This document shows, one piece after another, positions 1,354-37,247 of a stretch of 64,000 nucleotides of DNA. The notes under the pieces are model-generated. The model was not told the DNA's origin. It saw nothing but the letters and a program-made list of their open reading frames with translations, and did no database searches. How positions within the stretch are numbered: the first letter of the stretch is position 1; every line of letters begins with the position of its first letter. The position numbers were made by a program, and so were the translations under genes. Origin of the DNA: Burkholderiales bacterium (GTDB taxonomy: Bacteria > Pseudomonadota > Gammaproteobacteria > Burkholderiales > SG8-39); assembly GCA_035308765.1 (NCBI GenBank), contig DATGGA010000025.1, positions 2,576 through 66,575 on the forward strand. The letters are read 5' to 3'.

Positions 1354-2757
1354 ATGATGCGATCCATGGCCGCGATGCACGAATTGAATGCGATTCAAGT
1401 TGCAGCGCAATATCAGGACGGCGCGCTGTCGCCGGTCGACGTCGCGCGGGCCTGCCTGGAGCACATCGCAGCCTGGGAGCCGAAGCTGAATGCGATGTAC
1501 CGCCTCAGCGCGGAGGCCATGGCCGAGGCCAGGGCCTCGGAAAACCGCTGGCGCGCGAAAAAACCACTGTCGCCGCTGGACGGCGTGCCGGTGACCATCA
1601 AGGAAAACCTCTATACCAGAGGCGATCCAGCGCCGATCGGCACGATGGCAAACGCCGAGGCACCGCCGCAAGCGGCAGATTCACCTCCGGCTTCAAGACT
1701 GCGCGAAGCCGGCTGCGTGATCCTCGGCAAAAGCACCATGCCCGATTTCGGCATGCTTTCTTCGGGCCTCTCTAGCATCCACGGCATCACGCGCAATCCC
1801 TGGCGGCTGGACAGGAACACTTCGGGATCCAGCTCTGGCGCCGGCGCCGCGGCCGCGGCCGGCTACGCGCCGCTGCACCTCGGCACCGACATCGGCGGCT
1901 CGGTGCGCCTGCCGGCGACGCATTGCGGCATCTTCGCGCTGAAGCCCAGCCTCGGCCGCGTGCCCACCTACCCGCCCTACATCGGCCGCGTCGCGGGCCC
2001 GATGACGCGCAGCGTGACCGACAGCGCCGCACTCATGAACCTGCTGTCGAAGCCCGACGCACGGGATTTCATGAGCCTGCCGTACCAACCGGAAAATTAC
2101 ACCGACCTCGACGGTCTCGATCTGAAGAAACTGCGCATCGGCTTCCTGCCCGACATGAAAGCCGGCCTGCCCGTAAACGCGGAAGTGGCCGCGGCCGCGG
2201 CAGCAGCGGCAAAATCCCTCGCCGCCGCGGGCGCGAAGGTGGAGGAAATGAAGTCCTTCCTCAGCGCGGAACTGCTCGACGGCATGTCGCGCTTCTTCGA
2301 GGCGCGCTCGTACAACGATTACATGCAGCTCCCGCCGGCGAAGCAGGCCAAGGTACTGCCCTTCATCGTCGAATGGTGTACGTGGCGCGCGAAAAATTTC
2401 ACCGGCCGCGACGTCATGGCTGCCTACAACAGCTATGTCGCCTTGCGCGAAGTGACGACACGGGCCTGCGAGCCCTACGATTTCGTGATCTCGCCCACCT
2501 CGCCGATCCTGCCTTACGAAGCTGAGCTGCCCGCTCCAGGCAACGACCCGCACAACGCGCTGCCGCACATCGCCTTCACCGTGCCCTACAACATGTCCGA
2601 GCAGCCTGCTGCTTCGCTCAACTGGACTTTCAGCAAGGATGGATTGCCGATCGGCATACAGATCATCGGCAGGCGATTCGATGACCTCGGCGTGCTGCGA
2701 TTGTCGCGGGCGCTAGAACAGATGCGCCCCGCGCGACTTCCCTGGCCGAGCATCTAG
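1354..2757 (+). CDS. amidase-signature family amidase (GatA-like)
   Basis: 467-aa ORF with the Gly/Ser-rich amidase signature GSSSGAGAAAAAGYAPLHLGTDIGGSVRLPA. The start could be one of the nearby in-frame ATGs (1354, 1357, 1366, 1375). Confidence 0.9.
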   Translation: MMRSMAAMHELNAIQVAAQYQDGALSPVDVARACLEHIAAWEPKLNAMYRLSAEAMAEARASENRWRAKKPLSPLDGVPVTIKENLYTRGDPAPIGTMANAEAPPQAADSPPASRLREAGCVILGKSTMPDFGMLSSGLSSIHGITRNPWRLDRNTSGSSSGAGAAAAAGYAPLHLGTDIGGSVRLPATHCGIFALKPSLGRVPTYPPYIGRVAGPMTRSVTDSAALMNLLSKPDARDFMSLPYQPENYTDLDGLDLKKLRIGFLPDMKAGLPVNAEVAAAAAAAAKSLAAAGAKVEEMKSFLSAELLDGMSRFFEARSYNDYMQLPPAKQAKVLPFIVEWCTWRAKNFTGRDVMAAYNSYVALREVTTRACEPYDFVISPTSPILPYEAELPAPGNDPHNALPHIAFTVPYNMSEQPAASLNWTFSKDGLPIGIQIIGRRFDDLGVLRLSRALEQMRPARLPWPSI

Positions 2758-2758
2758 C

Positions 2759-2793
2759 ATTGTCGTCCCCGCGAAGGCGGGGGCCCGGGTTTT
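2759..2793 (+). repeat. REP-like palindromic element, left copy (ATTGTCGTCCCCGCGAAGGCGGGGGCCCGGGTTTT)
   Basis: Contains the hairpin CCCCGC-GAAG-GCGGGG. It starts 2 nt after the amidase stop codon. It matches the reverse complement of 5310-5344 at 29/35 positions by hand alignment. Confidence 0.7.
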
Positions 2794-2805
2794 GGTCCTA
2801 ACGCT

Positions 2806-3003
2806 TCAGGCCGCGACCTGCTCGTAGTCCAGCGCGGGAAGATCGGCCCTGCGGTTGGCGTGCTCGACCGTGATGGCGCAAATGTGCCCGGCTTCGTCGA
2901 GGTCCACCTGCGTGTCCTCGTCAAGATCCTTCGTTTCCGCAACCGAAATCGGGCGGAACTCAATGTGGAGTGTGTCGGTGCCGAGGAAATATCTGATCTT
3001 CAT
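2806..3003 (-). CDS. DUF2283 domain-containing small protein
   Basis: 65 aa: MKIRYFLGTDTLHIEFRPISVAETKDLDEDTQVDLDEAGHICAITVEHA. This is the typical DUF2283 pattern (Y..e.D.l.i.f......e....v.vD.d..G.i.gieI). It lies 10 nt downstream of the DUF5131 gene on the same strand. Confidence 0.8.
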   Translation of the reverse strand: MKIRYFLGTDTLHIEFRPISVAETKDLDEDTQVDLDEAGHICAITVEHANRRADLPALDYEQVAA

Positions 3004-3013
3004 CGCTGCAACA

Positions 3014-3751
3014 CTATGCCGTCGCTACGCGTAAAGGTAGCACCTTGCGCGGCATTTCGTTGTAATAGGCCCCATTCAGCTTGCGTCCAGTCATATCTTT
3101 CCTGACACCGCCCCACTGTTTGAAAAAGAACGCTACCCCCGCGGCCCGGCACTGCTTCAGAATCGAAGTAACCCATTCACGCTTCATTGGCCGCGCACGC
3201 GGGCCAGACTCGCCACCGACGATCGCCCAATCGATTCCCTGCAGGGAAAGATCGTCCAAAGGCCCGATCAGCGGCTCAAGCGACAGGAAACGAACAGCGG
3301 CGGGCACGGAGCGAAGTCCATCGATCCGTGAAATCACCCGCGTGTCCTCAACGCTCACACCCATCCAGACGTTCTTCGGCCATACAAGCTGTTGCCCTAG
3401 GGCCGCAAGCCGGTCTGCACGCTTCGTTAGCACTTGAAACGTATGCTGCGGACAATCGCGCATCGTGTCGAACACACGAGCGATGTATTCATCCGGAATA
3501 TCCTCATGAAACAGATCGCTCATCGAATTCACGAAGACAACGCGAGGCTGCCGCCATTTGCGCGGAACATCGAGCAGATCTGGATGTAACGTCACCTTGA
3601 ATCCGTTCCGATAGCGCTCGCTCCCCATGGCGGTGAGCCGCTTCGCCATCCGCTCTGCGTAGCAATGCTTGCACCCTTGGCTGATCTTCGTGCAACCCGT
3701 GACCGGGTTCCACGTCATCTCAGTCCATTCAATATTCGATTTTGTCGACAT
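3014..3751 (-). CDS. DUF5131 / phage Gp37-Gp68 family three-Cys-motif protein (PF07505-like)
   Basis: 245 aa. The N-terminus IEWTEMTWNPVTGCTKISQGCKHCYAERMAKRL with C20-x6-C27-x2-C30 is the family hallmark. Later family-typical blocks are VFVNSMSDLFHE, FQVLTKR, FLSLEPLIGP and AIVGGESGP. Confidence 0.88.
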   Translation of the reverse strand: MSTKSNIEWTEMTWNPVTGCTKISQGCKHCYAERMAKRLTAMGSERYRNGFKVTLHPDLLDVPRKWRQPRVVFVNSMSDLFHEDIPDEYIARVFDTMRDCPQHTFQVLTKRADRLAALGQQLVWPKNVWMGVSVEDTRVISRIDGLRSVPAAVRFLSLEPLIGPLDDLSLQGIDWAIVGGESGPRARPMKREWVTSILKQCRAAGVAFFFKQWGGVRKDMTGRKLNGAYYNEMPRKVLPLRVATA

Positions 3752-3796
3752 GTTGTTTACCTCGCCCGTGCACGATAGCGCAGGCGCGCGCGATCC

Positions 3797-4606
3797 TCAA
3801 CCGAACAGCCGCCCCTGGGGCGTAACGTTCGCAATATCCGACCAGAGTTTGTGCGCAAGTTCGTGGCGAGCCACGAACACCAGCCAGTACAAGCCGGAAC
3901 TCTTGCTGTTTTCAACCACCTCCACCTTGTCGTTCGGCGAAGTGCCGAGCCCTTGAATGAGAGATTTCCAGTGCTCGAAGATCGCCAATCGGATAAGTTC
4001 CGGCCGCTCCTTCGTGTCAACCTTGTCGCGCCAGCCCGGCGCAAACAAGTCGAGCTGCTTCGGACCATCCGTCCTCAAGTAGTTGTGGAGATCACGTTTG
4101 AGATCCATGGCACTGACATGGATCAGAAGATCCATGCGCTTCACGCGCGCGAGCTTTTCAATCACGGCAAACGGCAGGTCTCCGAGGTTGTAGGGATCGA
4201 GGAGCGCTAGGTGCAAGCCACTCGGATCGAGCGTCCGGATCACTTGGTCCGCGGTTTCACTAGCGTCGCCGGGAAAGACCCTCACATTGGCCCCTAGCTT
4301 TGCTAGCCTGGTACGTACGGCCTCCGCATAGCCTGAATTAGCATCACCAAGCAGGAACTCCGTGAATTGATCACCGTGACGCCCGCCTGCCTCCCACGCA
4401 ACTAAGGGACTACCATCAACGACTTGGGCGGTCTCCCGGATTCGCGTCCGGCCAGCGCCGCAGTACAGGTCAATGTAAGTCCGGTGAGCAAACTTCCTGC
4501 GCGCGCCGTGCGCACTATCAACGTACTTGCGCAGACGCTCATGTTTGTCGAGTGTCCAAGCTCCCGCCTCGCCCATCGGCAGTCCGTCTGCATCGACTAA
4601 ATCCAT
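3797..4606 (-). CDS. tcmP: three-Cys-motif partner protein TcmP (TIGR04474-like)
   Basis: 269 aa: GAWTLDKHERLRKYVD...YIDLYCGAGRTRI...DGSPLVA...LLDPYNLGDLPF. It sits immediately upstream of a DUF5131 gene, which is the defining gene pairing. A GGAGG SD lies 6 nt upstream of the ATG. Confidence 0.8.
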   Translation of the reverse strand: MDLVDADGLPMGEAGAWTLDKHERLRKYVDSAHGARRKFAHRTYIDLYCGAGRTRIRETAQVVDGSPLVAWEAGGRHGDQFTEFLLGDANSGYAEAVRTRLAKLGANVRVFPGDASETADQVIRTLDPSGLHLALLDPYNLGDLPFAVIEKLARVKRMDLLIHVSAMDLKRDLHNYLRTDGPKQLDLFAPGWRDKVDTKERPELIRLAIFEHWKSLIQGLGTSPNDKVEVVENSKSSGLYWLVFVARHELAHKLWSDIANVTPQGRLFG

Positions 4607-4617
4607 TCGGCCTCCGT

Positions 4618-4637
4618 GGATGTGTTTATATACAGTA
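4618..4637 (-). promoter_or_regulatory. LexA (SOS) box-like site in the tcmP promoter region
   Basis: The minus strand reads TACTGTATATAAACACATCC versus the E. coli-type consensus TACTGTATATATATACAGTA, 15/20 by my count. The left half-site is perfect and the right half is ACAT instead of ACAG. It overlaps TATACT/TATATA -10-like hexamers about 20-35 nt upstream of the tcmP ATG. Confidence 0.3.
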
Positions 4638-4723
4638 TAGCGCCTTAACGCGCCAGCCTGTGTCTAGCTGACATACAGTCGCGCTGTTGCGCACCGGACC
4701 AATCGTCGGCACATTGACGACCT

Positions 4724-5128
4724 GTGAGCCAGCTTCTTATCCAGCAGTACCTCAACCAGCTCTCGACGCTGAAGAAAGTCTCGGGCTCGACGCGCGAAAG
4801 CGTAGTGCGCGAGGCGTTCAAGGACCTCCTTAAGGGCTGGGGCCGTTCGCATGACCTGACCTTTGTTCCCGAGTACGAGATCGAAACCAGGACTAGGGAG
4901 CGGCGCTACGTTGACGGCGCCCTGCTCTACGAATTGCGTGTCCCGTTTGGCTACTGGGAGGCAAAGGACGAGAAGGACGATCTTGAAGCCGAAATCGCAT
5001 ACAAATTCAAGCGCGGCTACCGATTAGCGGATTACAAGAAGAAGGTGATCGCTCTGCTCGCACGCGTAACGACGGTATCGGTCGAAACGCAGCGGATTGT
5101 GGAGGCAATGAAGAAGGCGCCGTGCTGA
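4724..5128 (+). pseudogene. remnant of a large type ISP/IIG-like restriction-modification enzyme (N-terminal module fused to a C-terminal tail)
   Basis: 134-aa GTG-start ORF. The first ~100 aa (SQLLIQQYLNQLSTLKKVSGSTRESVVREAFKDLLKGW...FGYWEAKDEKDDLEAEIAYKFKRGY) resemble the conserved N-terminus of >1000-aa RM helicase/methylase enzymes. No methylase, helicase or nuclease core follows. Recognition is from memory only. Confidence 0.5.
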
Positions 5129-5309
5129 TTCTCGGGGGCCAATTCCGCAGCGATTTTATTGGCAGGAATGGCCGCTATTCATGCCAATAGAATTAGATTC
5201 TCCTTTAAATTCAAAAGACTATTCGTGCCAAAAGATTGGCGCGATTCCCGAAACACCCTCAAATCTCGATCTGTTCCGGCGGCACGACAACGAGATTGGG
5301 TATTTGGGG

Positions 5310-5344
5310 AAAACCCGGATTCCCGCCTGCGCGGAAACGACAAT
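5310..5344 (-). repeat. REP-like palindromic element, right (degenerate, inverted) copy
   Basis: The reverse complement reads ATTGTCGTTTCCGCGCAGGCGGGAATCCGGGTTTT. The plus strand contains ATTCCC-GCCTGCGC-GGAAAC. It matches 2759-2793 at 29/35 positions. Confidence 0.65.
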
Positions 5345-5373
5345 CTAATTCCGGGGGAACGGCAAAGTACCAC

Positions 5374-5982
5374 CTACGCAACCGGCTTCTCCCCGGCGAA
5401 TTTCCGCACGCTCTCCATGTGCGCCTCGTGCACGTGCTTCAGGATCGCGGGCCATTCTCCGTCCGGCACCTGCACTTCATTGGGGTCGGTGCCGGGCGAG
5501 GTCTGGGCGACGTTGCCGTAGAGCGCGGGCCATCGCTGATCGTATCCGCGCGAATTGCCGGCGTCCCAGTCGATCGCTTTCGTCGCGATGGGGACGAGCC
5601 GCTCGCGCCTGAAGTACTGGGACTCGACCAACGTCTTGGACATGAGCTGCCGGAGCGCAAGCATCGCCGCCGTCTGCGCCGTCTTGTCGCGGCAACGCAG
5701 CGCGTCGTAGACGGCGCGAAGGCGGCCGACGTGGTACCAGAAGATCGCCTGCTCGGCATGATCCTCGACGAGCGTATTCGCCAGCGCGTACAGCACCGGT
5801 GGCAGCACCGCCGTGGGCCGGCCCAGCACTTCGCTGATGGCGAGCCGCCGGTCGCTGCCGTAGGCGGGAGCGAGCCGGCTCATTTTCTCGTTCGCCGGGC
5901 CCAGGTCGATCGTGGCGTAGACGCCGCGGAATTTGACCGAGGCGTCTTTTCCGGGCGCCAGCTGCGCGAACGCGCGCGGCAT
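5374..5982 (-). CDS. hypothetical protein (possibly secreted; true start uncertain)
   Basis: 202-aa ORF with coding-like composition, co-oriented with and directly downstream of the M81 peptidase gene. I recognise no family. See the finding about the signal-peptide-like codons upstream of its ATG. Confidence 0.55.
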   Translation of the reverse strand: MPRAFAQLAPGKDASVKFRGVYATIDLGPANEKMSRLAPAYGSDRRLAISEVLGRPTAVLPPVLYALANTLVEDHAEQAIFWYHVGRLRAVYDALRCRDKTAQTAAMLALRQLMSKTLVESQYFRRERLVPIATKAIDWDAGNSRGYDQRWPALYGNVAQTSPGTDPNEVQVPDGEWPAILKHVHEAHMESVRKFAGEKPVA

Positions 5983-6030
5983 GAAGGCCAGCGTGGCGCA
6001 AAAAGTGACGAAGCGGCGGCGGAGAATGGG

Positions 6031-7527
6031 CTAGCCCCGGTACGCGGGCCCGAGCGGCCGCATGCGGACACCCTTGCGCAGCCGGGTCCACTTGAATTCG
6101 GTCGGATCGGCGAGCGCCGGGCCGGGCGACTTCACCACCAGAACCTCTTTCGAAATCGGCTCGAAGTCGGCGCGGAAATGGACCGAGCTCTTGAGCGCGA
6201 GGATGCGGCTGCGGCGCGGCTCGACGCCGAGGTGGCGGAACATTTCCTGGTCGCCGGCCTGGCACTTGCGCGTGGCGAGCGCGACGCGCACGCCGGGGGC
6301 GGCCTTGCTTCGGAGCAGCGCCATGTTGCCCAACTGCATGCGGAAGCCCTTGAACATCGGCCCGGTGCAGGTGAACTTGCCGTCGCCGAGCTGTTCGACC
6401 GTGAATTCGCCTTCGAGAGGGGAATCGCCGGGGATGTTCGAGCGTCCCCCCAATTTGAATATTGAAGTAAAACCCAAACCAATTTCGTGCGCCTTCCTGG
6501 CCGCCTCGCCGTCGATCAGCAGGCCGAGCACCGCGTCCTGCGCTTTCTGCTGGATCAGCGATTTCAGCAGCCCCGTGGTGTCGCCGTTGCCGCCTGCGCC
6601 GGGATTGTCCTGGGTGTCGGCCAGCACCACCGGCTTGCCGGGCTCGCCGCTGCTGCGCGCGCGCGCCACCGCCTCGTCTGGCAGGTGCAGGTCCATCGCG
6701 AAGTCTTTCTCGGCATCGGACACCAGGCCCCACAACCGATCCACCGCGGCAACGGTGTTTTTCTCGTCAGAACCGTAGCCGAACACCGCCATGCCGCATT
6801 CCGGGAAATCGGCCATCGGAAATCCCGGCGTGAAGGAAAGGGTGACGTCCTGGTCGCGTCCCAGGTCTTCGTAGATCGTCCTGCAGGGATCGATGAAGGA
6901 GCACTGCGAAGGCAGGCCCGTCAGGTAGTCCAGGGCGCGCCAGTGCTTCGCCGGCGGCCTGCCGGCGCGGATCATGCGGTCGAGCAGAACGGCGGCGCGC
7001 GCGCCGGTGTCGGCCATGTCAATGTGCGGATAGGTGCGGTAGGCGACCAGCGCGTCGCAGCGCTCGAACATCGCGTGCGTGAAATTGCAGTGCAGGTCGA
7101 GGCTGGCGGCGACCGGCACGCGCGGCCCCACCAGCGCGCGCACGCGGCGCAGGATCTCGCCTTCGCCGTCGTCGTGCGCCTCGGTGACCATCGCCCCGTG
7201 CAGGTCCAGGTACACGCCGTCGACCGGCAGCGCTTTTTTCAACCGGGCAACGAGTTCCCCGACGATGCGCTCGAAAGCGTCGGTGGTGACCTGCGCCGAG
7301 GGGCTCGCCGCGCCCCAGGCGGTAGCCACGAGTTGGTGCCCCTGGGCGCGCAGCGCCTGGATCGCACCGGCAGCGGGAATGTTGGCGCCCTCCACCGCAC
7401 CGAAAACGGGCTCGCCGTACTGCACGCCGGGCCAGCCGCCGCCCGCCTCGAAGGCCGCGTAATCGGCCCTGGACGGCGCAAAAGTATTGGTCTCGTGCTG
7501 CATGCCTCCGATTGCTATACGCGCCAT
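6031..7527 (-). CDS. M81 family metallopeptidase (MlrC-like)
   Basis: 498 aa. The N-terminus MARIAIGGMQHETNTFAP is the typical MlrC/M81 start, and the length fits. Confidence 0.85.
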   Translation of the reverse strand: MARIAIGGMQHETNTFAPSRADYAAFEAGGGWPGVQYGEPVFGAVEGANIPAAGAIQALRAQGHQLVATAWGAASPSAQVTTDAFERIVGELVARLKKALPVDGVYLDLHGAMVTEAHDDGEGEILRRVRALVGPRVPVAASLDLHCNFTHAMFERCDALVAYRTYPHIDMADTGARAAVLLDRMIRAGRPPAKHWRALDYLTGLPSQCSFIDPCRTIYEDLGRDQDVTLSFTPGFPMADFPECGMAVFGYGSDEKNTVAAVDRLWGLVSDAEKDFAMDLHLPDEAVARARSSGEPGKPVVLADTQDNPGAGGNGDTTGLLKSLIQQKAQDAVLGLLIDGEAARKAHEIGLGFTSIFKLGGRSNIPGDSPLEGEFTVEQLGDGKFTCTGPMFKGFRMQLGNMALLRSKAAPGVRVALATRKCQAGDQEMFRHLGVEPRRSRILALKSSVHFRADFEPISKEVLVVKSPGPALADPTEFKWTRLRKGVRMRPLGPAYRG

Positions 7528-16783: not shown

Positions 16784-17254
16784 TCAGTTGGCGCAGGTCT
16801 GCTGCGTCGTCTGCTTCGTTTTTTCGACTTCTTGTGCCGTCTGACTTTCGTCCATGTAGTACCTTTGGCCGGCAGCGTCCGTGCGGGCGATACGTTGCCC
16901 AGACTGCAGAGTGCGCAGATATTCCTTCGCTCTGGCGCAGTCGTCTGCTTTCGCTGCCTTGGCCTGGCGATCCTTCTCAGCTTTCTCGCTCTCCTTCTTG
17001 GCCTCCTCCTGGCGCTTGCGGTATTCCTGCTCCTGCTCCGCCGGTGTCAGCGGACCCTTTTTTGCGTCCTTGGAGGCCGCTCCGGCCGAATCGGCCGGCC
17101 CGGGCGGCGGCGCCTTGATGGATGTCGCGTTGACGCCCGGCGGCGGAACATCGCTGTACCGCACCTTGCCATCCTTGTCGACCCACTTGTACAACTGCGC
17201 CTGCGTCGCGGCGGCGAAGCCGACGATCGCAATGAAAAACAATATCTTTCTCAT
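16784..17254 (-). CDS. DUF4124 domain-containing secreted protein
   Basis: The start is taken at MRKILFFIAIVGFAAATQAQ, with a GGGAGA SD 7 nt upstream. The track ORF starts 6 codons earlier. LYKWVDKDGKVRYSDVPPPG is the DUF4124 hallmark, followed by a charged coiled-coil-like middle. Confidence 0.8.
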   Translation of the reverse strand: MRKILFFIAIVGFAAATQAQLYKWVDKDGKVRYSDVPPPGVNATSIKAPPPGPADSAGAASKDAKKGPLTPAEQEQEYRKRQEEAKKESEKAEKDRQAKAAKADDCARAKEYLRTLQSGQRIARTDAAGQRYYMDESQTAQEVEKTKQTTQQTCAN

Positions 17255-17330
17255 TTCATTCTCCCGATGCAAATGCCGCGCGGCTGTGCGCCCGGCCCGA
17301 GCAACTCAGGATGATACGGCCTATCGCACA

Positions 17331-17816
17331 CTACTTTCTACCGAGGTCGTGGATGGCATCCGCAATCATGCCGGTCCCTGCCGCGATCAGCAGGATGTCG
17401 CCCGCCACGCGCACGTAGCGGTATCCGGCGGGCGGCGCGCCCAGTTGCACGACCAGCGCGGGCGGCACGTCGTACCGGACCACCTCGGGCGGCAGAGGCC
17501 GGCCGACGGCCCATTTTTTTGCCTGGCCGGGCGGCATGCAACCGTCGTGCTTCTTGGCGAGGCCAGGCGGGCACCTGCCGGCTTGAAATTCCCCCTGGTA
17601 GTAATCCCGTACGGCTGTCCGGTGGCGATCGGCGAAATGGTGTCCGCCTTTTTCGTCCCGCCGGTCGTCATGGCCGCGGTCCTGCTCACCCTTCGCTTCC
17701 CGCTCCTCGCCCTTGCCGGCCCAGGGCGGTTTGTCCGCGAGCACCGGGACCGCAACCACCGCCGCCGAGGCCGCCACAGCAAGGATACGAATCGTTCCCA
17801 GAATCGCATGTCGCAC
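17331..17816 (-). CDS. CigR/RcnB-like periplasmic protein
   Basis: 161 aa with a signal peptide and a charged H/D/R-rich middle. The C-terminal part is PPGQAKKWAVGRPLPPEV...LGAPPAGYRYVRVAGDILLIAAGTGMIADAI. Confidence 0.65.
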   Translation of the reverse strand: MRHAILGTIRILAVAASAAVVAVPVLADKPPWAGKGEEREAKGEQDRGHDDRRDEKGGHHFADRHRTAVRDYYQGEFQAGRCPPGLAKKHDGCMPPGQAKKWAVGRPLPPEVVRYDVPPALVVQLGAPPAGYRYVRVAGDILLIAAGTGMIADAIHDLGRK

Positions 17817-17938
17817 GAATCATTCCTCCATATTTGCCAAACGCCCAGCATACGCTTCGCGTTTACGAGGATTTGCTCCCGCATTCGGCGGGATGTGACA
17901 TTCGTCACTCTTGCGCGCGCGGCGAGCGGTCGAGAAAT

Positions 17939-18014
<76 letters not shown>

Positions 18015-18217
18015 ATACCTGCCGCATCGACGCGCCGGCCGCCGCCCACGGCGAGCGGCGGATTATACGCCCGCTGCCGCCGCCTCAGGCGCGTGAACCA
18101 GTTCCGCTATACTCGGCCGCGCCGCGCCGTCCGGTCCGCGATTCCTGCCGTTGGTCGCCCGACTTTGCGGCATGGACGGCGCCTAACTAATATCCACCAT
18201 CGAGAAAGGATCGCTCC

Positions 18218-18628
18218 ATGCGCCGCCCAAGGGAGAGGGGATTCACCCTCATCGAAGTTATGATCACCGTCGTCATCGTCGGCATTCTTGCCGCGATCGC
18301 GTTGCCGTCGTACAACCAGTACCTCACCAAGTCGCGCCGCTCCGAGGCGCAGCAGTTGATGACGCAGATCTCCTCGCAGCAGGCGCAGTATCTCTTCGAC
18401 GCGAGGAGCTACACCGCGACGCTCGGTCCGAGCGGCCTGAACATGGCCCGCTCCAACTGGACGTGCACCACCAACTGCGTCGGCCAGTACTACACGGTCT
18501 CGATTTCTACCCTCACCAACACCGCGACCCCTCCGTATTACCAGATAACGGCGACGCCGAGCGGCTCCCAGATTCCGGACGGCAACCTCACGCTCGACAG
18601 CGTCGGCGCGAAGACCGGCACCTGGTAG
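18218..18628 (+). CDS. pilE: type IV pilin, PilE-like
   Basis: 136 aa. The prepilin leader and cleavage motif is [45 protein letters not shown] is present. Confidence 0.85.
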
Positions 18629-18633
18629 GCGAC

Positions 18634-19122
18634 ATGGAGCGCGGATTCACCCTCATCGAAGTGATGGTCACCGTGGCGATAGTCGCGGTGCTCGCAAGTT
18701 TCGCGCTGCCGGGAGTGCGCGACTACCTCGCCACCGGCGCGATCCGCGCGGCCAGTTCTGACTACTACGCGGCACTGCTCGCGGCGCGCTCGGAAGCGAT
18801 CAAGCGGCGCACCAATGCGGTTGTCGCGCCCATTGGAACCACCTGGAACACCGGCTGGACGGTCACGGTGGGCGGCAACCTGTTCCAGCAGGCCGACGCG
18901 CTGCGGCCCGACATCTCAGTGCAGGTGAACGTCCCGGCATCCGCCACCACGACGCCGGTGACCTACGGGTCGAACGGCCGCGTGAGTTCAGGCGCGCAGA
19001 TGGTCATTTTTTATTCGCCCACGCAAACCAGGATATTCGCGCGCTGCGTGAGCGTCGACACCAACGGCCTGCCGCGCGTGCGGATCGCCAACACCAATGT
19101 AGCGACCAATGGCTGCACCTGA
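18634..19122 (+). CDS. fimT: GspH/FimT family minor pseudopilin
   Basis: Internal ATG: [32 protein letters not shown]...RSEAIKRRTN, with the FimT/FimU-type C-terminal domain. Confidence 0.8.
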   Translation: MERGFTLIEVMVTVAIVAVLASFALPGVRDYLATGAIRAASSDYYAALLAARSEAIKRRTNAVVAPIGTTWNTGWTVTVGGNLFQQADALRPDISVQVNVPASATTTPVTYGSNGRVSSGAQMVIFYSPTQTRIFARCVSVDTNGLPRVRIANTNVATNGCT

Positions 19123-19756
19123 GAGAACAACACGCGGGCGCTCCTCGCAAGCGGGCTTCTCGCTGATCGAGATCCTGGTCGCGCTGCTGATCCTGACGGT
19201 CGGCCTGCTCGGGCTCGCCGGGATGCAGGCGGTGGCCCAGCGCTCCGAGGTCGAGTCCTACCAGCGCGCCCAGGCAATGGTGCTCATGAACGACATCCTC
19301 GACCGCATTAACGCCAATCGCAAGGCAGCCGCCTGCTACGCGATCACGACGGACTTTACCAATGGCGTGCCGTATGTCGGCACCAGCGGCTCCGGCCAAT
19401 ACAGCACCGGCGGCTACTCCTGCCCTTCGCTCGCCAGCAATCCGAACGCGGCTTCGCGCGCCGGCATTGACCTGCAGCTCATCGAGCAGGCGATGCTCGG
19501 CGCGAGCGAAACCCTGGGCAGCGCCAGCGTCGGTGCGCTGCTCGGCGCGCGCGCCTGCATCGGTTTCGACAGCGCGGCGCAGGCCTACACCGTCGCGATT
19601 GCCTGGCAGGGCCAGTCGCAAACGTTTTCGCCGGCCTCCTGGGCGGCGGGCAACAACCCGGCGGTTGCGCGCAACTGCGCGCTCAACCTGTACGGCACCG
19701 ACACCCAGCGCCGCGTAATCTGGACCACGCTGATGGTCGCCTCCCTGAGCAGCTGA
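19109..19756 (+). CDS. pilV: type IV pilus modification protein PilV
   Basis: QAG/FSLIEILVALLILTVGLLGLAGMQ is the PilV hallmark. Confidence 0.85.
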   Translation: MAAPERTTRGRSSQAGFSLIEILVALLILTVGLLGLAGMQAVAQRSEVESYQRAQAMVLMNDILDRINANRKAAACYAITTDFTNGVPYVGTSGSGQYSTGGYSCPSLASNPNAASRAGIDLQLIEQAMLGASETLGSASVGALLGARACIGFDSAAQAYTVAIAWQGQSQTFSPASWAAGNNPAVARNCALNLYGTDTQRRVIWTTLMVASLSS

Positions 19757-19760
19757 CGCT

Positions 19761-20942
19761 ATGGTATCGACGATGGGCACCCGCAGCGCCCAGGCCGGCC
19801 TCTCGATCGTCGAGTTGATGGTTGCCATCACCATCGGCCTGCTGCTTCTGGCGGGGCTCGCCTCGATGTTCGGAAGCTCCAGCCGATCGCAGAACGAACT
19901 GCGGCGGGCGGCGGAGCAGATAGAGAACGGCCGCTACGCCATGGACACGATGACGCAGGACTTGCAGCTCGCCGGCTACTTCGGTCAGAACCGCGTCACC
20001 AGCACGCCGCCGACGTCGATGCCCGATCCCTGTACGCTGACGATAGCGAACATGACCACGGCGGTCGCGATCGGAGTGCAGGGATACAGCTCGGGCGGAC
20101 TGAGCAGCAGGCCCGCGCTTCCGGCAAGTTGCGCCACCTGGTTGCCCAACGCAAACCTCTCCAAGGGCAGCGACGTCGTCATCGTGTACCGCACGAACAC
20201 CAGTTATCTGCCGATCGGGACGGCCACGACCGCAGGCCAGTTGTACGTCCAGACCAACCCGGCGACATTCACAGTGCAGAACGGCGGCGGCACCACCAGC
20301 TGCACCAGCGGCGCGGACGGCAGCGCCTCGTCCATCACCCGCCGCTGCCTCACCCCCAACACCCTGCCCGACGAAATCTGCTCCTCGCTCTGTCCCGGCG
20401 GCTCGCCGGTTGGGTACATCCGCCAGCTCGTGGTGCACATATATTTTGTCGCGCCCTGCAACGTGCCCACCGGCGGCGGCAGCATCTGCACTGGCACGAC
20501 TGATGACGGCGGCACGCGCATTCCGACCCTGAAGCGCCTGGAGCTGACCGCATCCGGCGGCGCGGCCACATTCCAGATCACATCGATCGCGGAAGGCGTG
20601 GAATTCATGAAAGTCGAATATGGCATCGACGACACGCCTTCGGCTGTGAACACGCAGACCGGTCTGGTCGGCGACGGCGCCACCGACCGGTATGTGCTGG
20701 CGCCGGCATTGTCAGACCTGACGAACGCGGTGACCGTGCGGGTCGACTTGCTCGTACGTAACCCCGAGCCCTCGATCGGTTACACCGACTCGAAGACCTA
20801 CAACCTGGGCGTCAACCCGGCCCTCCCCACGAGCCCGGCCGTCACCGTCACTTCAGTGAACTACGCCCCCACCTATCGGCGTCATGTCTACAGCTCGGAA
20901 ATCCGGCTGGTCAACCTGAGCAGCCGCAAGGAGAATCCGTGA
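19761..20942 (+). CDS. pilW: type IV pilus assembly protein PilW
   Basis: QAG/LSIVELMVAITIGLLLLAGLASMF...ENGRYAMDTMTQDLQLAGY. Length is 393 aa. Confidence 0.85.
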   Translation: MVSTMGTRSAQAGLSIVELMVAITIGLLLLAGLASMFGSSSRSQNELRRAAEQIENGRYAMDTMTQDLQLAGYFGQNRVTSTPPTSMPDPCTLTIANMTTAVAIGVQGYSSGGLSSRPALPASCATWLPNANLSKGSDVVIVYRTNTSYLPIGTATTAGQLYVQTNPATFTVQNGGGTTSCTSGADGSASSITRRCLTPNTLPDEICSSLCPGGSPVGYIRQLVVHIYFVAPCNVPTGGGSICTGTTDDGGTRIPTLKRLELTASGGAATFQITSIAEGVEFMKVEYGIDDTPSAVNTQTGLVGDGATDRYVLAPALSDLTNAVTVRVDLLVRNPEPSIGYTDSKTYNLGVNPALPTSPAVTVTSVNYAPTYRRHVYSSEIRLVNLSSRKENP

Positions 20943-21451
20943 GTCGCGGGCTTCGCGCGCAGCGCGGGATGACGCTGCTGATCGCGCTCATCATGCTGAT
21001 CGTGATGACGATGTTCGTGGTGTCGATGGTGAAGATCGGCAACACCAACACCACCATCGTCAGCAATATGCGCGCCCAGAAATCGGTCGATACCGAAGCG
21101 CAGCAGCAGATCGAGATCGCGATCAACAGGTACCAGTTCTTCAGCGACGTCATCGGCGGCGCCGGGGGCTGGGCGAGCGCCCCGACGTACCTGACCGCAG
21201 CCCAGCTGTGGGCGACCTACGCGCCGCCTGGCGCGAGCACCGAGACCGCGACGCAGTCCAACGACCTCAGGCTCTACCGCCCGCAATGCAACTATGCCGC
21301 GCCGGCCAGCGGCTACAGCGCCCTCTCCGGCGTCGCGCCGCAGGACACGTACTGGGACATCGAGGCGACGGCGAGCGACTCGACAACCGGCGCCTCGACC
21401 GAAATCCACCAGGGCATCTGGATGCGGCTGCCCGCCGGCAATTGCAATTAG
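20939..21451 (+). CDS. pilX: PilX-like minor pilin
   Basis: GTG start in a GTGA overlap with the pilW stop. QRGMTLLIALIMLIVMTMFVVS has the PilX_N-type hydrophobic N-terminus. The position between pilW and pilY1 fits. Confidence 0.75.
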   Translation: MSRGLRAQRGMTLLIALIMLIVMTMFVVSMVKIGNTNTTIVSNMRAQKSVDTEAQQQIEIAINRYQFFSDVIGGAGGWASAPTYLTAAQLWATYAPPGASTETATQSNDLRLYRPQCNYAAPASGYSALSGVAPQDTYWDIEATASDSTTGASTEIHQGIWMRLPAGNCN

Positions 21452-21474
21452 GAACAAATGAATCTGGAGCAATC

Positions 21475-24400
21475 ATGAAAGTATTCCAACAAAACCTGAT
21501 GACAGCGCTGCTCGCCTTCCTGTTGACGGCCGCGACCGTGCCGGCCTTGGCGGCGGGCGTCGACCTCGTGGGAGACGACACGGACCTGTTCACGACGAAT
21601 CCAAGCATCCCGGCGGAGGTTCCGAACGTCCTGGTCGTCCTGGACAATACCTCTAACTGGTCGCAGCAGGCGCAGCAATGGCCTGCGACTCTCGATCCAG
21701 CCTGCGTGAGCGCGGGGATGACCGGCACCGCCCAAGGTGATGCCGAGATCTGCGCAATTTTCCTTACCATCCAGAATCTGACGTCGTCGGTGAACGTGGG
21801 CCTGATGATGTTCGACGATCAAAACAAGGGCGCATACGTCCGTTTTCCGATGGGTTCCATGACGCCGGCCAATATCGCGACGTTCAAGTCGATCTTGGTC
21901 AACATCAGTACCAACAATCCGGGCGACAAGACCAGCTCGAACACGGCGTACGAGAACCCGATGAACGACGTGTTCCGTTACTTCAACAGCCTGGCGACCT
22001 TAACGCAAAACGCAGCGCCCACGCCGCAGGCGAACGTCGGCGGCTACACCGATTCGACGATGAATAACTTCAGCTTTCTCCCCGGACAGAGCGGCGATAC
22101 CTGCGGTTTCGACTACATCATCTTCATCGGCAACGGCTTTCCAAACGCCGGCAGCCTCACGCCCGACATGGCCACTGCCTCCGGGTTGCTAAACGACTCG
22201 GCGAATATCGTCCTGAACACGACGCCGATCCAGAACACCGGCAGCAACGCCGACGTATGGTCGCGTTTTCTCTTTCAGTACGGGGTCAAAGTGGGTGCCG
22301 GCGCCTACCGCCATGTCACGACCTACACGATCAACGTCTGCAACGCCAAATGCACGGCAAACCAGACGGCCTTGAACCAGATCACGCTGCTGCAAAGCAT
22401 GGCCACCGTGAGCCAGGGCAAGTATTTTCTCGCCACGAGTATCGGCGCGATCGAATCCGCTCTAGCCAGTATTTTTGCGGAAGTGCAAGCGGTCAACAGC
22501 GTGTTCGCAGCAACGACGCTGCCGGTTTCGATCAACGTGCGCGGCACCAACCTGAACCAGGTGTACATCGGCGTGTTCCGGCCGGATCCGACCTCCAGCC
22601 CGCGCTGGTTCGGCAACCTGAAGCAGTATCAACTTGGCCTCAATGCCTCGACGAACTCCCTGCAGCTCGTCGACGCGACCGGCGCGCAAGCGGTGAACCT
22701 CAACACGGGATTCATCACGAACACGGCAACGAGCTTTTGGACGACCACCTATAACGCCCAGGGCACCACGCCGGCGCTGGGATTCTGGTCATTCCGCGGG
22801 CCAAGTTACGCCACCACGGATGTCGGCAAGGATCAGGACTCGCCGGATGGCGACCTCGTCGAGAAAGGCGGCGGCGCGGAAATGATCCGCATGACCTATC
22901 CCATGCCAGACTCGACCGCCGCGCAGACGCGCAACCTGTACACCTGCACCGGCTCCTGCGCCGCGGGAAGCACGCTGTCAAGCTATCTTTTCAATACCTC
23001 TAACTCCGATATCACCGCGGCGCTGCTGGGCACATTCCAAGCAATCAGCGTATCGTCGCTTAGCGCTTCGGGGACGACGGCCACCGCCGTAACGTCCGCG
23101 GCCCATGGATTTTCTGTCGGGAATGTCGTCACAATCGCCGGCGCCGTGCCCAATCTGTTCAACGGCAATTACACTATTGTCACCGTCCCGAACGCGACCA
23201 GCTTTACCTACACGCTTTCGTCTGCGCCGGATACGACGCACGCATACGTGACGCTGCCGGGATACACGCTCGTACCGGCCACGGATCTCGTCACGGTCTC
23301 TGGAGCGACGCCAACCGCCTACAACGTCGCCAGCACGGCAATTTCGGCGGTTGTCGGCAACGCGAACCAGTTCTCATACGTATTGGGTTCATCGCCGACA
23401 ACGGCGGCCAGCGGATATTCAGTTACGGGGATACGTCAAGTCCAGGTGTCAAGCGGGACGAGCAAGGTCACGTGGTCAAATGGCTCGGCGTTGAACAATG
23501 TAACGGTCTCTCTGGCCAACCACGGCTATAGCAGCGCCGATACGGTCGCCATCACAGGAGCAACGGACGCGGCCTTCAATACGGCCGGGTCGACAATCGT
23601 CAAGGTCGACAACAACACATTCACCTACACGACCGCGTCGACTCCCGCTGGCGGCACGACCACGACCGGAGTAGTGACTCTCACGGGCTCGCTGCCAAGC
23701 GGTTGGGGTAGCGGGACTGTAGTCAAGATTTCCGGCGTAACGAATCAGACGAACTACAACACTGCATCCACCGGCACCAGTATCTCGCATGTTTCCGGCA
23801 ATACGTTCCAGTACACCACCTCCGGAACCGTCGCCAGCGCTGCAAGCGGCACCATGGTCGCCAACCAGGTGGTCGCGAGCGATACCAGCACGTGGACGGT
23901 CAGCTCTGCCGCAGCGCAGAGCGTCACGGCGACGGCGAACCTCGACAGCACCTGGAACATAAGCAACGTCGTTGCGAGCGGCAGCGGCAGCAACCAAAAC
24001 CTGAGTATTACGCTAAACAAGGCGCAATTTACCGATGTCGTATCCGGCAAACCGAACGTTTTGAGGCAGCTACAGGTAGGCGACGCTATCAGCATCGCGG
24101 GAACCTGCACTTACAAAGTGGGGAGCGCTACCAATCAATGCAATGGGCTCAGCATCCTCTCGGTCAGCGGCAATACTGCAAACGCAACCAACCCCAATTC
24201 CACTTCCTTTACGAATCTCAACACCTCCGTCACGGTGGTCCTCTCCGTGGGCGCAAACATCGGCACGATAAGTTTCAGTGGCGCGACAATGTTGTACGCC
24301 GGCACGAGCAGCGCGACAGGCAATTTCGGCATCCGGTTCACGCTCAGCCGCGGCCAGTACTCCGGGCAGCTCCTGCACCAGCTCGCGCCGGGGGATTCGC

Positions 24401-26727
24401 TTGCCTTCGCGAACTGCTCGTATACGGCGGGCGGCGTGAGTAATATTTGTAGCGGCACCGTCGCGGCGGTGTCTGGAAATTCCAGTATCACGAACGCCCC
24501 TCCGGTCGCTGCCAACACCTACGCAGATATTACGGGCACGGTTACCGTCGATGTGGTTCAAAGCTCGCCCGGTGCGATCAGCGCGGTCACAACGACCAAC
24601 ACGGCAGCAGGCGTAGCGCCGCTCGGCACCGCAACTACACTGGCCTGGACCGGTCAAACCATCGGTGCAAATGTGGCGATCACATCCATTGTTCCCGGCC
24701 CATTGACGGTGCAAGCCGCCGGAACGATCTATGCGTCGAAGTCGGGCGATCTGACGAGCAAGGTGACCTCGATCGCCAACCAGTCGGTGGCGACCGGAAC
24801 CATTACCGCCGGCCTCGCCAGCAACCCCGATCCGAACGAGCGGGCAGAGCTTATCAACTGGGTGCGCGGCCAGGACAACAAGGACGACGAGAACATAAAC
24901 GGGATCTCCACGGACGTGCGCTCTTCCGTGCACGGCGACGTGCTGCATTCGCGGCCGGCGGTGGTCAACTACAACCGGTTCGGCGACAACAACGACGTCT
25001 ACATCTTCTACGGCTCCAACGATGGCCTGCTGCGCGCGATCAAGGGGGGCCAGGCGACCGACGGCACCGCGGGCCAGGAGCAATGGGCGTTCATCGCGCC
25101 GGAATTCTTCGGCAAGGTGAAGCGCCTGCGCAACCAGACGCCGGCGATCTCTTCCACCAGTCCCAAGGACTATTTCTTCGACGGGCCGATCGGGGTCTAT
25201 ACGCTCGATGCGAACAACGACGGCAAGCTCAATGCCGCGGACGGCGACAAGGTGTACCTGTTCCTGGCGATGCGCCGCGGCGGACGCATGGTCTACGCGC
25301 TCGACGTGACCAATCCGACCAGTCCCAAGCTGCTGTGGAAGCATGGCTGCACGAATCCCACCGGCACGGGAAGCACCGGCGGCTGCGACACCGGATGGGA
25401 CCAGCTTGGGCAAACCTGGTCCCAGCCGCAGTTGGCCTACCTGAACGCCTTTCCCACTACGCTCGCGCTCATTTTCGGGGCGGGCTACGACTCGCCGGCC
25501 GAGGATTTCCAGCCCTGCGTTGTTACCGCGTTCAATTCCGGCTCGGTCACCGGCTTGACGAATGTCGTCTTCCCGATCCCGATGACGACCGCCAACTGTC
25601 CGCCGACGGGCGGCACCAGCACGACGAACAACCGGACCATGGGCCGCGGCATATTCATCGTCAACGCCGCGACCGGGGCGATACTGCAGCGGATCGGCCC
25701 AGATTCGAGCGCCAACCTGCAAGTCACCGGGATGACTTACGCCATTCCGGCGGACCTGGCGATCCTCAAGAACCGCGCCAACACCAGCGCGCGCGCATCG
25801 TCGATCGGCACGGAAAGCGTCACGGCCGGCTACATCGACAGGATCTACGCACCGGACACCGGCGGCAACGTGTGGCGGATCGACGTATCGGATTCCAACA
25901 CCGCCAACTGGGTGGCGACGCAATTCGCCTCGATCGCGCCCGCGAGCGGCTCCTCGACGACGACCGGATCGCCGGCGGCGGCGAACATGCGCAAGCTCGA
26001 ATTCCAGTCCGACGTGGTCTACTCGAGCGACGCGAACGGCAGCTTCGACGCGGTGCTCGTGGGCAGCGGAGACCGCGAGCATCCCTTCGACCAGGTCGTT
26101 GCCAACCGCTTCTACATGTTGAAGGACCGCAATGTCGCCACCATCACGCCCGCGATGGTGACGCCGACGCCGCCGGCGACGATCACGGAGAGCGGCCTTT
26201 TCGACATCACCAACGGCTGCCTGCAAAGCGCGACTAACTGCACGGGATCGCAAACGCAAGCCACCGCGGCGGCTTCATTGCTGGGCGCTTCAGGATGGCT
26301 GATGCAGCTCGCCAACACCGGCGAGAAAACGATCGCGCCGGCCACGACGGCGAACGGCACGGTCATATTCAACACCAACCAGCCGAAACAGGACACGGTC
26401 ACCGGTACCGCGAACAACACGACGTCGGGCGCGGGCAATTCCTGCGTTTCCGATCTCGGCACCGCCCGGCAGTACGGGGTGAGCTTCCTGAACGGCAACC
26501 CCTCGTATATCTACAACCAGCTGCCCTCGCAATACGTTCCCACGTCGGGCCTCGGCCGCTACGCCACCTTCGCCGGCGGCGGGTTCCTGCCGCAGCCGGT
26601 GCCTGCGGTCGTGCAGATCGGCGGCAAGTACTACCAGACGATAATTTCGGGCGTGACCACCACCAACCCGGGAGGCTTGTCGCTCCAGAATCGCGTGCGG
26701 ACTTACTGGTACAAGAAGGTGGATTGA
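21475..26727 (+). CDS. pilY1: type IV pilus tip adhesin / biogenesis factor PilY1, unusually long (1750 aa)
   Basis: Internal ATG of the 21208..26727 ORF gives the signal peptide MKVFQQNLMTALLAFLLTAATVPALAAG. The N-terminal part is vWA-like (VLVVLDNTSNWS). Conserved PilY1/PilC blocks are ELINWVRGQDN, HGDVLHSRPAVVNY, VYIFYGSNDGLLRAI, MRRGGRMVYALDVTNP and GQTWSQP. An EF-hand-like loop DANNDGKLN is present. Confidence 0.9.
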   Translation: MKVFQQNLMTALLAFLLTAATVPALAAGVDLVGDDTDLFTTNPSIPAEVPNVLVVLDNTSNWSQQAQQWPATLDPACVSAGMTGTAQGDAEICAIFLTIQNLTSSVNVGLMMFDDQNKGAYVRFPMGSMTPANIATFKSILVNISTNNPGDKTSSNTAYENPMNDVFRYFNSLATLTQNAAPTPQANVGGYTDSTMNNFSFLPGQSGDTCGFDYIIFIGNGFPNAGSLTPDMATASGLLNDSANIVLNTTPIQNTGSNADVWSRFLFQYGVKVGAGAYRHVTTYTINVCNAKCTANQTALNQITLLQSMATVSQGKYFLATSIGAIESALASIFAEVQAVNSVFAATTLPVSINVRGTNLNQVYIGVFRPDPTSSPRWFGNLKQYQLGLNASTNSLQLVDATGAQAVNLNTGFITNTATSFWTTTYNAQGTTPALGFWSFRGPSYATTDVGKDQDSPDGDLVEKGGGAEMIRMTYPMPDSTAAQTRNLYTCTGSCAAGSTLSSYLFNTSNSDITAALLGTFQAISVSSLSASGTTATAVTSAAHGFSVGNVVTIAGAVPNLFNGNYTIVTVPNATSFTYTLSSAPDTTHAYVTLPGYTLVPATDLVTVSGATPTAYNVASTAISAVVGNANQFSYVLGSSPTTAASGYSVTGIRQVQVSSGTSKVTWSNGSALNNVTVSLANHGYSSADTVAITGATDAAFNTAGSTIVKVDNNTFTYTTASTPAGGTTTTGVVTLTGSLPSGWGSGTVVKISGVTNQTNYNTASTGTSISHVSGNTFQYTTSGTVASAASGTMVANQVVASDTSTWTVSSAAAQSVTATANLDSTWNISNVVASGSGSNQNLSITLNKAQFTDVVSGKPNVLRQLQVGDAISIAGTCTYKVGSATNQCNGLSILSVSGNTANATNPNSTSFTNLNTSVTVVLSVGANIGTISFSGATMLYAGTSSATGNFGIRFTLSRGQYSGQLLHQLAPGDSLAFANCSYTAGGVSNICSGTVAAVSGNSSITNAPPVAANTYADITGTVTVDVVQSSPGAISAVTTTNTAAGVAPLGTATTLAWTGQTIGANVAITSIVPGPLTVQAAGTIYASKSGDLTSKVTSIANQSVATGTITAGLASNPDPNERAELINWVRGQDNKDDENINGISTDVRSSVHGDVLHSRPAVVNYNRFGDNNDVYIFYGSNDGLLRAIKGGQATDGTAGQEQWAFIAPEFFGKVKRLRNQTPAISSTSPKDYFFDGPIGVYTLDANNDGKLNAADGDKVYLFLAMRRGGRMVYALDVTNPTSPKLLWKHGCTNPTGTGSTGGCDTGWDQLGQTWSQPQLAYLNAFPTTLALIFGAGYDSPAEDFQPCVVTAFNSGSVTGLTNVVFPIPMTTANCPPTGGTSTTNNRTMGRGIFIVNAATGAILQRIGPDSSANLQVTGMTYAIPADLAILKNRANTSARASSIGTESVTAGYIDRIYAPDTGGNVWRIDVSDSNTANWVATQFASIAPASGSSTTTGSPAAANMRKLEFQSDVVYSSDANGSFDAVLVGSGDREHPFDQVVANRFYMLKDRNVATITPAMVTPTPPATITESGLFDITNGCLQSATNCTGSQTQATAAASLLGASGWLMQLANTGEKTIAPATTANGTVIFNTNQPKQDTVTGTANNTTSGAGNSCVSDLGTARQYGVSFLNGNPSYIYNQLPSQYVPTSGLGRYATFAGGGFLPQPVPAVVQIGGKYYQTIISGVTTTNPGGLSLQNRVRTYWYKKVD

Positions 26728-26750
26728 CCGCCCGGAACTTCAACGGGCGG
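26728..26750. terminator. hairpin between convergent pilY1 and the DUF4124-glutaredoxin gene
   Basis: CCGCCCG-gaacttcaa-CGGGCGG, a 7-bp GC stem directly after the pilY1 stop. There is no strong U-tract. Confidence 0.5.
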
Positions 26751-26767
26751 GACCGTTTCCGCGCGGA

Positions 26768-27403: not shown

Positions 27404-27435
27404 GCGCGAATAATACCATTCCGCCCAGCGAACTC

Positions 27436-33770: not shown

Positions 33771-33810
33771 TTCGACCCGTAGTTCCCGGATTCGCAAAGG
33801 AGGAGTTGCG

Positions 33811-36008: not shown

Positions 36009-36033
36009 AAAACCCCGCTCACGCGGGGTTTTT
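36008..36033. terminator. bidirectional Rho-independent terminator between dctM and the convergent TRAP binding-protein gene
   Basis: AAAAA-CCCCGC-tcac-GCGGGG-TTTTT, immediately after the dctM stop. Confidence 0.8.
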
Positions 36034-36060
36034 CTATGCTGCCCTCCTTGCTGACGGCGG

Positions 36061-37149: not shown

Positions 37150-37247
37150 TGAATCCCTCCTCCGTTTGGTTCGATTGGTGGACCTTCGATTGAAGTCCGA
37201 GCGGCGATTCTAGCCTCGAATCGGGCCCCGGGGAACCGGGTCCAGAT

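Follow-up and report, generated by a model that had tools for sequence, protein, structure and literature searches.

Inverted CGTC-1 REP hairpins at the edges of a defence-gene hotspot between amidase and M81 peptidase genes in a Burkholderiales bacterium

In the genome of a Burkholderiales bacterium a short run of accessory genes (positions 2759-5344 of the analysed DNA) is enclosed by two inverted copies of a 35-nucleotide (nt) hairpin, which raises the question whether these hairpins are the ends, or the integration site, of an inserted piece of DNA. The analysed DNA, called the window in the following, comprises 64,000 nt of contig DATGGA010000025.1 (positions 2,576 to 66,575; assembly GCA_035308765.1), and the host assembly is a metagenome-assembled genome (MAG) of 3.26 Mb in 104 contigs with a completeness of 94.8 %. 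An earlier inspection of the letters alone, the sequence-only reading, had regarded the run as one cassette of lower GC content that was inserted at, or is delimited by, sites of the repetitive extragenic palindromic (REP) type. Comparison with relatives of the same genus leads to a different answer. The locus is a defence hotspot resembling the minimal mobile elements of Neisseria, with conserved flanks, alternative cargoes, empty sites and no mobility gene. Most probably (at roughly 0.75) its edges were colonised by REPs, and the hairpins are neither the ends nor the integration site of inserted DNA. They are not taken for cassette ends because the cargo is a mosaic, the hairpins occur independently of it, their orientation is explained by the flanking genes and a machinery for mobility is missing.

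A hotspot between two conserved genes

The amidase and M81 peptidase genes that frame the locus are convergent, and the variable content lies between them. The features, with window coordinates and strand, are as follows.

1354-2757, plus strand: amidase gene (PF01425, 9.1e-85), conserved, left flank of the hotspot
2759-2793, plus strand: left hairpin, CGTC-1 REP or NTS-like motif with TGTC tag, stem GTCCCCGC/GCGGGGGC, loop GAAG and tail CCGG, then TTTT
2806-3003, minus strand: gene for a small DUF2283 protein (PF10049, 3.7e-11)
3014-3751, minus strand: gene for a DUF5131 (Gp37/Gp68, three-Cys) protein (PF07505, 2.7e-102; PADLOC PDC-M41B, 3.5e-123)
3797-4606, minus strand: gene for TcmP, the partner protein of DUF5131 (TIGR04474, 2.3e-47; PDC-M41A-like, PADLOC PDC-M41A, 1.7e-10)
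4724-5128, plus strand: in-frame stump of a type ISP/IIG restriction-modification enzyme, an open reading frame (ORF) of 134 amino acids (aa) (BLASTP; PADLOC REase_MTase_IIG, 3e-23)
5129-5309, no strand: non-coding, AT-richer remnant after the stump (GC 0.525), aligning with the relatives G008 and G006
5310-5344, minus strand: right hairpin, CGTC-1 REP or NTS-like motif with TGTC tag, stem GTTTCCGC/GCGGGAAT, loop GCAG and tail CCGG, then TTTT
5374-5982, minus strand: 202-aa gene (orf202) with no family match, variable among relatives, GC content at third codon positions (GC3) 0.88 and thus native
6031-7527, minus strand: M81/MlrC peptidase gene (PF07364, 9e-94; PF07171, 9.1e-52), conserved, right flank of the hotspot

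In 24 relatives of the genus the amidase and M81 genes are still convergent neighbours, with a nucleotide identity of 73-88 % for the amidase gene. Genomes are designated here by G numbers and contigs by C numbers; every genome compared is a fragmented MAG, and no conspecific contig is on record by exact match of the amidase protein. Nine of the sites are empty, and no fewer than eight different contents were counted at the hotspot. In G013, G015, G005 and G016 the stop codon of the amidase gene lies 0-4 nt from that of the homologue of the 202-aa gene, and in G001, G002, G012, G019 and G022 the amidase gene directly adjoins the M81 gene. Relatives in which the amidase meets one of these two genes had been predicted by the sequence-only reading and do exist (four and five, respectively), but the single REP copy expected at the empty site is absent in 9/9 cases, the stop codons being 0-4 nt apart or the spacer being of unrelated sequence.

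Among the alternative cargoes are AbiEi/AbiEii genes in G014, an RHH-PIN pair in G008 and G006, a gene for a 466-aa Fic protein next to the right edge in G017, G009 and G024, and one for an AAA ATPase in G017. The cargo of G009 (C15:11800-18100) includes a Schlafen-like helicase of 805 aa with an S24-like C-terminus as well as a MazG-like protein. Remnants of the same type ISP enzyme as in the host, with Type_ISP_C in G010 and G006, are present in G010, G006 and G008, and the end points of their deletions differ. A DUF5131 gene of native GC3 (0.85-0.93), split into two ORFs and without TcmP, is also found at the hotspot of G007 (C159:4300-6638); its neighbour is a P-loop gene, zeta-toxin-like as judged by eye from the sequence.

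Variability is not confined to the DNA between the hairpins. The four enclosed genes are accessory, as had been claimed before, but they are not exactly the non-core genes, because the 202-aa gene outside the right copy is variable, too. This gene, for which no Pfam, NCBIfam or PADLOC match was obtained, is not present at the locus of nine relatives and in the others shows an aa identity of 44-62 %, compared with 75-92 % for M81. Furthermore, no correlation exists between the similarity ranks of the two flanks across 16 relatives (rho 0.28, p 0.29), which is consistent with the pattern that recombination-driven exchange across the site would produce.

The lower GC content, first noticed by eye, was confirmed by calculation: it amounts to 0.571 for 2759-5344 compared with 0.652 +/- 0.025 in segments of the same size throughout the genome (1.4th percentile). 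GC3 is likewise lower in the DUF5131 and TcmP genes (0.65-0.67) than in amidase, orf202 and M81 (0.81-0.88). The description of 2759-5344 as an accessory, compositionally foreign stretch therefore holds.

Separate histories of cargo and hairpins

Three pieces at least, each with its own history, make up the mosaic cargo of the host: DUF2283, the DUF5131-TcmP pair and the type ISP remnant. DUF2283 is found at the same position only in G024 and G010 (78-80 % aa identity). The DUF5131 and TcmP genes are located on the same strand with 45 nt between them, and both components of PADLOC PDC-M41, a candidate defence system, are present and adjacent at the locus. As a two-gene module of 61-82 % aa identity the pair occurs in MAGs of Burkholderiales, Chloracidobacterium and Dehalococcoidia, and it is accompanied there neither by DUF2283 nor by hairpins, as seen in 13 distant MAGs. 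The idea that the hairpins form part of a TcmP-DUF5131 module was rejected, as 0/13 related loci possess them. Residues 1-99 of the restriction stump match residues 1-99, and residues 100-132 match residues 993-1025, of a 1033-aa type ISP enzyme (BLASTP); the deletion is in frame and about 890 aa are lost. Stump and downstream remnant are common to G008, G006 and G010. The three pieces are thus distributed independently in relatives, and the 2.6-kb stretch cannot be upheld as one cassette.

The remnant behind the stump contains palindromes (window 5153-5260), namely ATTGGCA...TGCCAAT (5153-5193) and TGCCAAAAGATTGGCG, both of which are kept in G008 and G006. They may once have served the lost restriction enzyme as an operator or regulatory site.

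The presence of a hairpin is independent of the neighbouring cargo as well. An orthologous copy of the left hairpin lies between the stop codons of amidase and DUF2283 in G010, whereas in G024 DUF2283 is located 4 nt from the amidase stop codon and no hairpin is present. In G008 an orthologue of the right hairpin has a perfect stem, while G006 shares the remnant and lacks the hairpin. In G009 a canonical copy is situated between the Fic gene and the 202-aa gene.

These positions also bear on the explanation that the hairpins were carried in with foreign DNA as intergenic sequence of the donor. The left copy stands between the stop codons of amidase and DUF2283 in host and G010 alike, the right copy stands at the end of a tail region that is shared with G008, and with its wide distribution in the order the repeat family could be present in donors. 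Cargo free of hairpins is nevertheless found in each case, that is DUF2283 in G024, the tail region in G006, TcmP-DUF5131 in the 13 MAGs and, for another locus described below, an ArsR-SRPBCC gene pair in G010. In addition, the hairpins are GC-rich, as are the other copies of the host, so that carriage from a donor is extremely improbable.

No inverted repeat in 2000-6500 is longer than the one formed by the two copies (35 nt, 83 % complementary). An inverted-repeat search returned the pair as it had been quoted, with 29/35 agreeing positions, and the left copy indeed begins 2 nt past the amidase stop codon (2755-2757). Both copies consist of TGTC-stem-loop-stem-CCGG and fold with an 8-bp stem and a 4-nt loop, including one G-U pair on the left and two on the right; the fold z-scores of about -1 are unremarkable at such a GC content. 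The left copy has GTCCCC/GGGGGC arms rather than the ATTCCC-N8-GGGAAT core, which is fitted exactly by two other copies in the genome. For the right copy the plus strand reads ATTCCC-GCCTGCGC-GGAAAC, in line with the dRS3-like reading it had been given, and it fits the dRS3 subtype targeted by phage Nf1, ATTCCCRCCTRCGCGGRAAK, at 19/20. The NTS consensus CGTCATTCCCGCGMAVGCGGGAATCYRG is matched at 22/28 by the left copy, with mismatches that are mostly compensatory stem pairs, at 25/28 by the right copy and at 23-28/28 by the other genome copies, one of which reaches 28/28. The latter carry a CGTC tag and CCAG/CCAT tails.

In the CGTC-1 REPs, as defined by Di Nocera, De Gregorio and Rocco (2013, PMC3733652), a stem of 8 bp closes a loop of 4 nt; an unpaired tag, CGTC or in many copies TGTC, precedes the stem, and a short tail resembling CCA follows it. 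Most copies are found 3' of a gene or in the gap of a convergent gene pair, head-to-head dimers are frequent and a dedicated transposase is lacking; the neisserial members are the dRS3 / NIME repeats (PMC3733652). The hairpins described here are CGTC-1 REP members and thus of the dRS3/NTS (Ssn-related motif) family, and the earlier labelling as REP-type and dRS3-class is supported by tag, stem, loop and tail together with the matches to NTS (22/28 and 25/28) and to the dRS3 subtype (19/20). Nine copies at six loci exist in the host genome. Across 33 relatives of the genus the copy number ranges from 0 to 71, often in head-to-head doublets, and within the order the family was found in 27/81 sampled genomes (24/69 genera) with up to 116 copies. 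The hairpins are not due to chance, as a control with the reversed pattern gave 0 matches throughout the host and its genus relatives.

Each copy at the locus lies directly downstream of a flanking gene and is oriented in the reading direction of that gene. The two copies are mutually inverted because each of them reads in the direction of the flanking gene upstream of it. No Rfam match was obtained in 2400-6100 (E up to 1). A canonical intrinsic terminator was considered and rejected, as a terminator scan found none; none is called because the T-run begins 5 nt past the stem.

Put in terms of the filamentous Nf phages of Neisseria, the sequence-only reading would mean that the 2.6-kb block was inserted whole by site-specific integration into a REP/dRS3 target. 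The fit of the right copy to the Nf1-targeted subtype (PMC3898611), the low GC content of a block bracketed by both copies and the empty sites in relatives agree with such an event, but none of the nine empty sites contains a hairpin, and relatives carry the parts of the mosaic block separately. Moreover, the copies are complete, inverted hairpins and not the halves of a split target in direct orientation, and they vary independently of the neighbouring genes. No recombinase or transposase domain was detected in 2759-5344 by profile search (Pfam/NCBIfam), nor is there a recombinase near the stretch, and the same kind of search revealed neither Y1_Tnp (PF01797) nor IS110 (PF01548) in the host genome. 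The IS110 elements of the genus are not inserted in these hairpins. Site-specific insertion of the block as one cassette at a REP site is thus very improbable and largely refuted.

Other ways of mobilisation were considered in the same manner. No flanking direct repeat or target-site duplication exists (...CTAGC at one border vs CTAAT... at the other). A transposon or miniature inverted-repeat transposable element (MITE) with terminal inverted repeats was rejected: inverted ends are present, but target-site duplication and transposase are missing and the parts are independently distributed. No RAYT gene was found in the host. Mobilisation of the REPs by RAYT was rejected as well, since the host is devoid of PF01797, the Y1 genes of relatives are edged by an unrelated hairpin and the presence of Y1 does not follow the copy number. 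This unrelated hairpin, AAATCGGG-GTCAGAG-CCCGATTT, flanks RAYT-like Y1 genes of relatives (G044:C256, G047:C45); it constitutes a further REP family of the genus, distinct from the one at the locus. Targeting of the hairpins by IS110-type elements was also dismissed; none occurs in the host, and no hairpin halves were seen around the IS110 genes of relatives, many of which lie at contig ends.

Hairpins and the edges of variable segments

The remaining REP loci of the host were compared with five well-assembled relatives. On C46 (5062-5972) two direct copies, 876 bp apart, bracket a gene for an ArsR-family regulator and an SRPBCC/AHSA1-like gene, both named by eye from the sequence. This cassette is present in 1/33 relatives (G010), at a different site and without hairpins, and homology stops within about 10-20 nt of the hairpins. 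A doublet on C58 borders an indel of two genes in the comparison with G009; G014 and G008 lack the doublet but keep the neighbouring gene. At these two loci, too, hairpin and cargo are independent of each other. The copy on C43 lies 27-42 nt from a break of homology that is present in all five relatives, and the copies on C52 and C4 occupy intergenic gaps that are conserved and collinear. The TTTT-tailed subtype has five copies, all of them at edges of variable segments. The family is thus not a ubiquitous repeat unrelated to breaks of synteny, being low in copy number (9) and having 4/6 loci at variable edges.

Two further segments of the window are variable and carry no hairpin of the family at their edges. 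A 3.5-kb segment (33733-37248) is precisely missing in G024 and G008, which have 18-24 nt instead, and a pilus/PilY1 region of about 10 kb (17218-27447) is too divergent to align in the five relatives.

In Neisseria the small GIY-YIG nuclease SsnA cuts single-stranded DNA (ssDNA) beside the NTS, defined as the consensus given above (Chenal et al. 2025, PMC11893778); cleavage by Ssn is strand-specific and upstream of the motif, which typically flanks the ssn gene. The presence of SsnA lowers the transformation of DNA flanked by NTS, variable genes are surrounded by clusters of NTS, and 19 % of motif-rich genomes have no ssn (PMC11893778). Pairs of dRS3 have furthermore been proposed as sites of insertion or deletion (PMC3898611). 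In the host genome no ssn gene was detected; matches to GIY-YIG comprise only UvrC and a weak Cho-like one. The sole ssn homologue found in 34 genomes of the genus is a small GIY-YIG gene of G005 (C47:5727-5864) with hairpins on both sides, and as it exists in G005 only, no correlation of ssn with hairpin copy number can be drawn within the genus. At least four copies of the hairpin family surround this ssn-type gene (G005:C47:5400-6000).

An active role of the hairpins in the turnover of cassettes could take two forms. Cutting of incoming ssDNA by Ssn at NTS motifs would regulate which combinations of flank and cargo can recombine, or recombination between hairpins would lead to insertions and deletions. 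The hairpin-flanked ssn gene of G005 fits such a role, as do the position of the REP loci, including all TTTT-tailed copies, at variable edges and the neisserial precedents of NTS around variable genes, lowered transformation and the insertion or deletion proposed for dRS3 pairs (PMC11893778; PMC3898611). The adjoining orf202 is, in addition, unusually divergent, as reported for genes next to dRS3. On the other hand, an ssn homologue was found neither in the host nor in 32/33 relatives, most variants of the hotspot, all empty sites included, contain no hairpin, and the other variable segments of the window have none either. The sample is small and REPs are confined to dispensable intergenic DNA, which is commoner at such edges. 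An active role is for these reasons regarded as unlikely. In this environmental genus, inverted hairpins of NTS type at the borders of defence islets might serve as marks for ssDNA cleavage or for recombination that control the exchange of islets by natural transformation. This idea is decidedly unlikely. If it were true, with one cuttable copy on each strand, an Ssn-carrying recipient would remove one homology arm from every incoming strand, and the NTS/Ssn mechanism of Neisseria would apply to defence-island turnover in free-living bacteria as well.

Several points weigh against the reading of a hotspot with REP-colonised edges. Four of the six REP loci of the host are found within about 50 nt of the edge of a variable segment, compared with a baseline of about 10-15 % of intergenic gaps (about 4 edges among some 35-40 gaps in 40 kb of the same window). 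The excess (binomial p about 0.001-0.006) is weak evidence, as few loci were compared and the baseline was taken from a single region, and it is further weakened by the persistence of REPs only in dispensable spacer DNA, itself commoner at such edges. It could nevertheless mean that the hairpins take an active part in exchange, and it echoes the reports on dRS3 and NTS in Neisseria without showing a mechanism. The homologous recombination in the flanks is itself an inferred process, and the state of G024 fits both an arrival of the left hairpin after DUF2283 and its loss from G024. Finally, the genomes are fragmented throughout, and missing ssn, RAYT or IS genes could just have escaped assembly.

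A hotspot with REP-colonised edges remains the preferred reading. According to it, small sets of defence or toxin-antitoxin genes would be gained, swapped and eroded in the gap between amidase and M81 with no dedicated mobility gene, homologous recombination in the flanks being the presumed route of exchange and deletion that of decay. DUF5131-TcmP would be a horizontally travelling pair, and an old type ISP gene would have been reduced to a stump and its downstream remnant. The hairpins would have come separately and occupied intergenic gaps opened at the edges of the islet.

Comparison with known systems

The repeat family is already known, and the locus is an ordinary, nicely documented hotspot for a defence islet. 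Its value lies in the documentation of nine empty states and at least eight cargoes within one genus, together with independent decay of a restriction enzyme. Hairpins of the dRS3/NTS type, best known from Neisseria, exist here at low copy number in an uncultured relative, where they tend to variable edges and the cognate nuclease is almost absent. This provides context for the question of the role of such hairpins outside Neisseria; a new kind of element is not revealed.

As in the REP/REPIN-RAYT systems, the repeats are short, palindromic and extragenic and often form inverted doublets. However, the RAYT-like genes of the genus use a different hairpin and the host has no Y1 transposase. The likeness to the CGTC-1 REPs is closer, as tag, 8-bp stem, 4-nt loop, CC-rich short tail, intergenic position, head-to-head doublets and lack of a transposase are all shared. 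Differences are the number of copies, nine compared with hundreds in Neisseria, the lack of large arrays of the NIME type, stems that mostly correspond to the GTCCCCGC variant and not to ATTCCCGC, and a subset with a TTTT run 5 nt past the stem.

With the NTS/SsnA system the hairpins have in common a consensus match of 22-28/28 and the layout "NTS-gene-NTS" around variable, non-essential genes, and one member of the genus (G005) carries a motif-flanked ssn gene. In contrast to that system, no ssn was detected in the host genome or in 32/33 relatives, and the lineage consists of environmental MAGs and is not host-associated. As for the PADLOC candidate defence system PDC-M41, DUF5131 and TcmP are both present, adjacent and co-oriented, whereas DUF2283 joins the pair here and not elsewhere.

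The locus as a whole is best compared with the minimal mobile elements of Neisseria (Saunders and Snyder 2002; summarised in PMC3898611). Here species of one genus and not strains are compared, the cargo is partly decayed, and transformation and homologous recombination enter only as inferred processes. Common to both are two conserved flanks between which whole-gene cassettes, often of restriction-modification type, are swapped without mobility genes, and the existence of empty sites.

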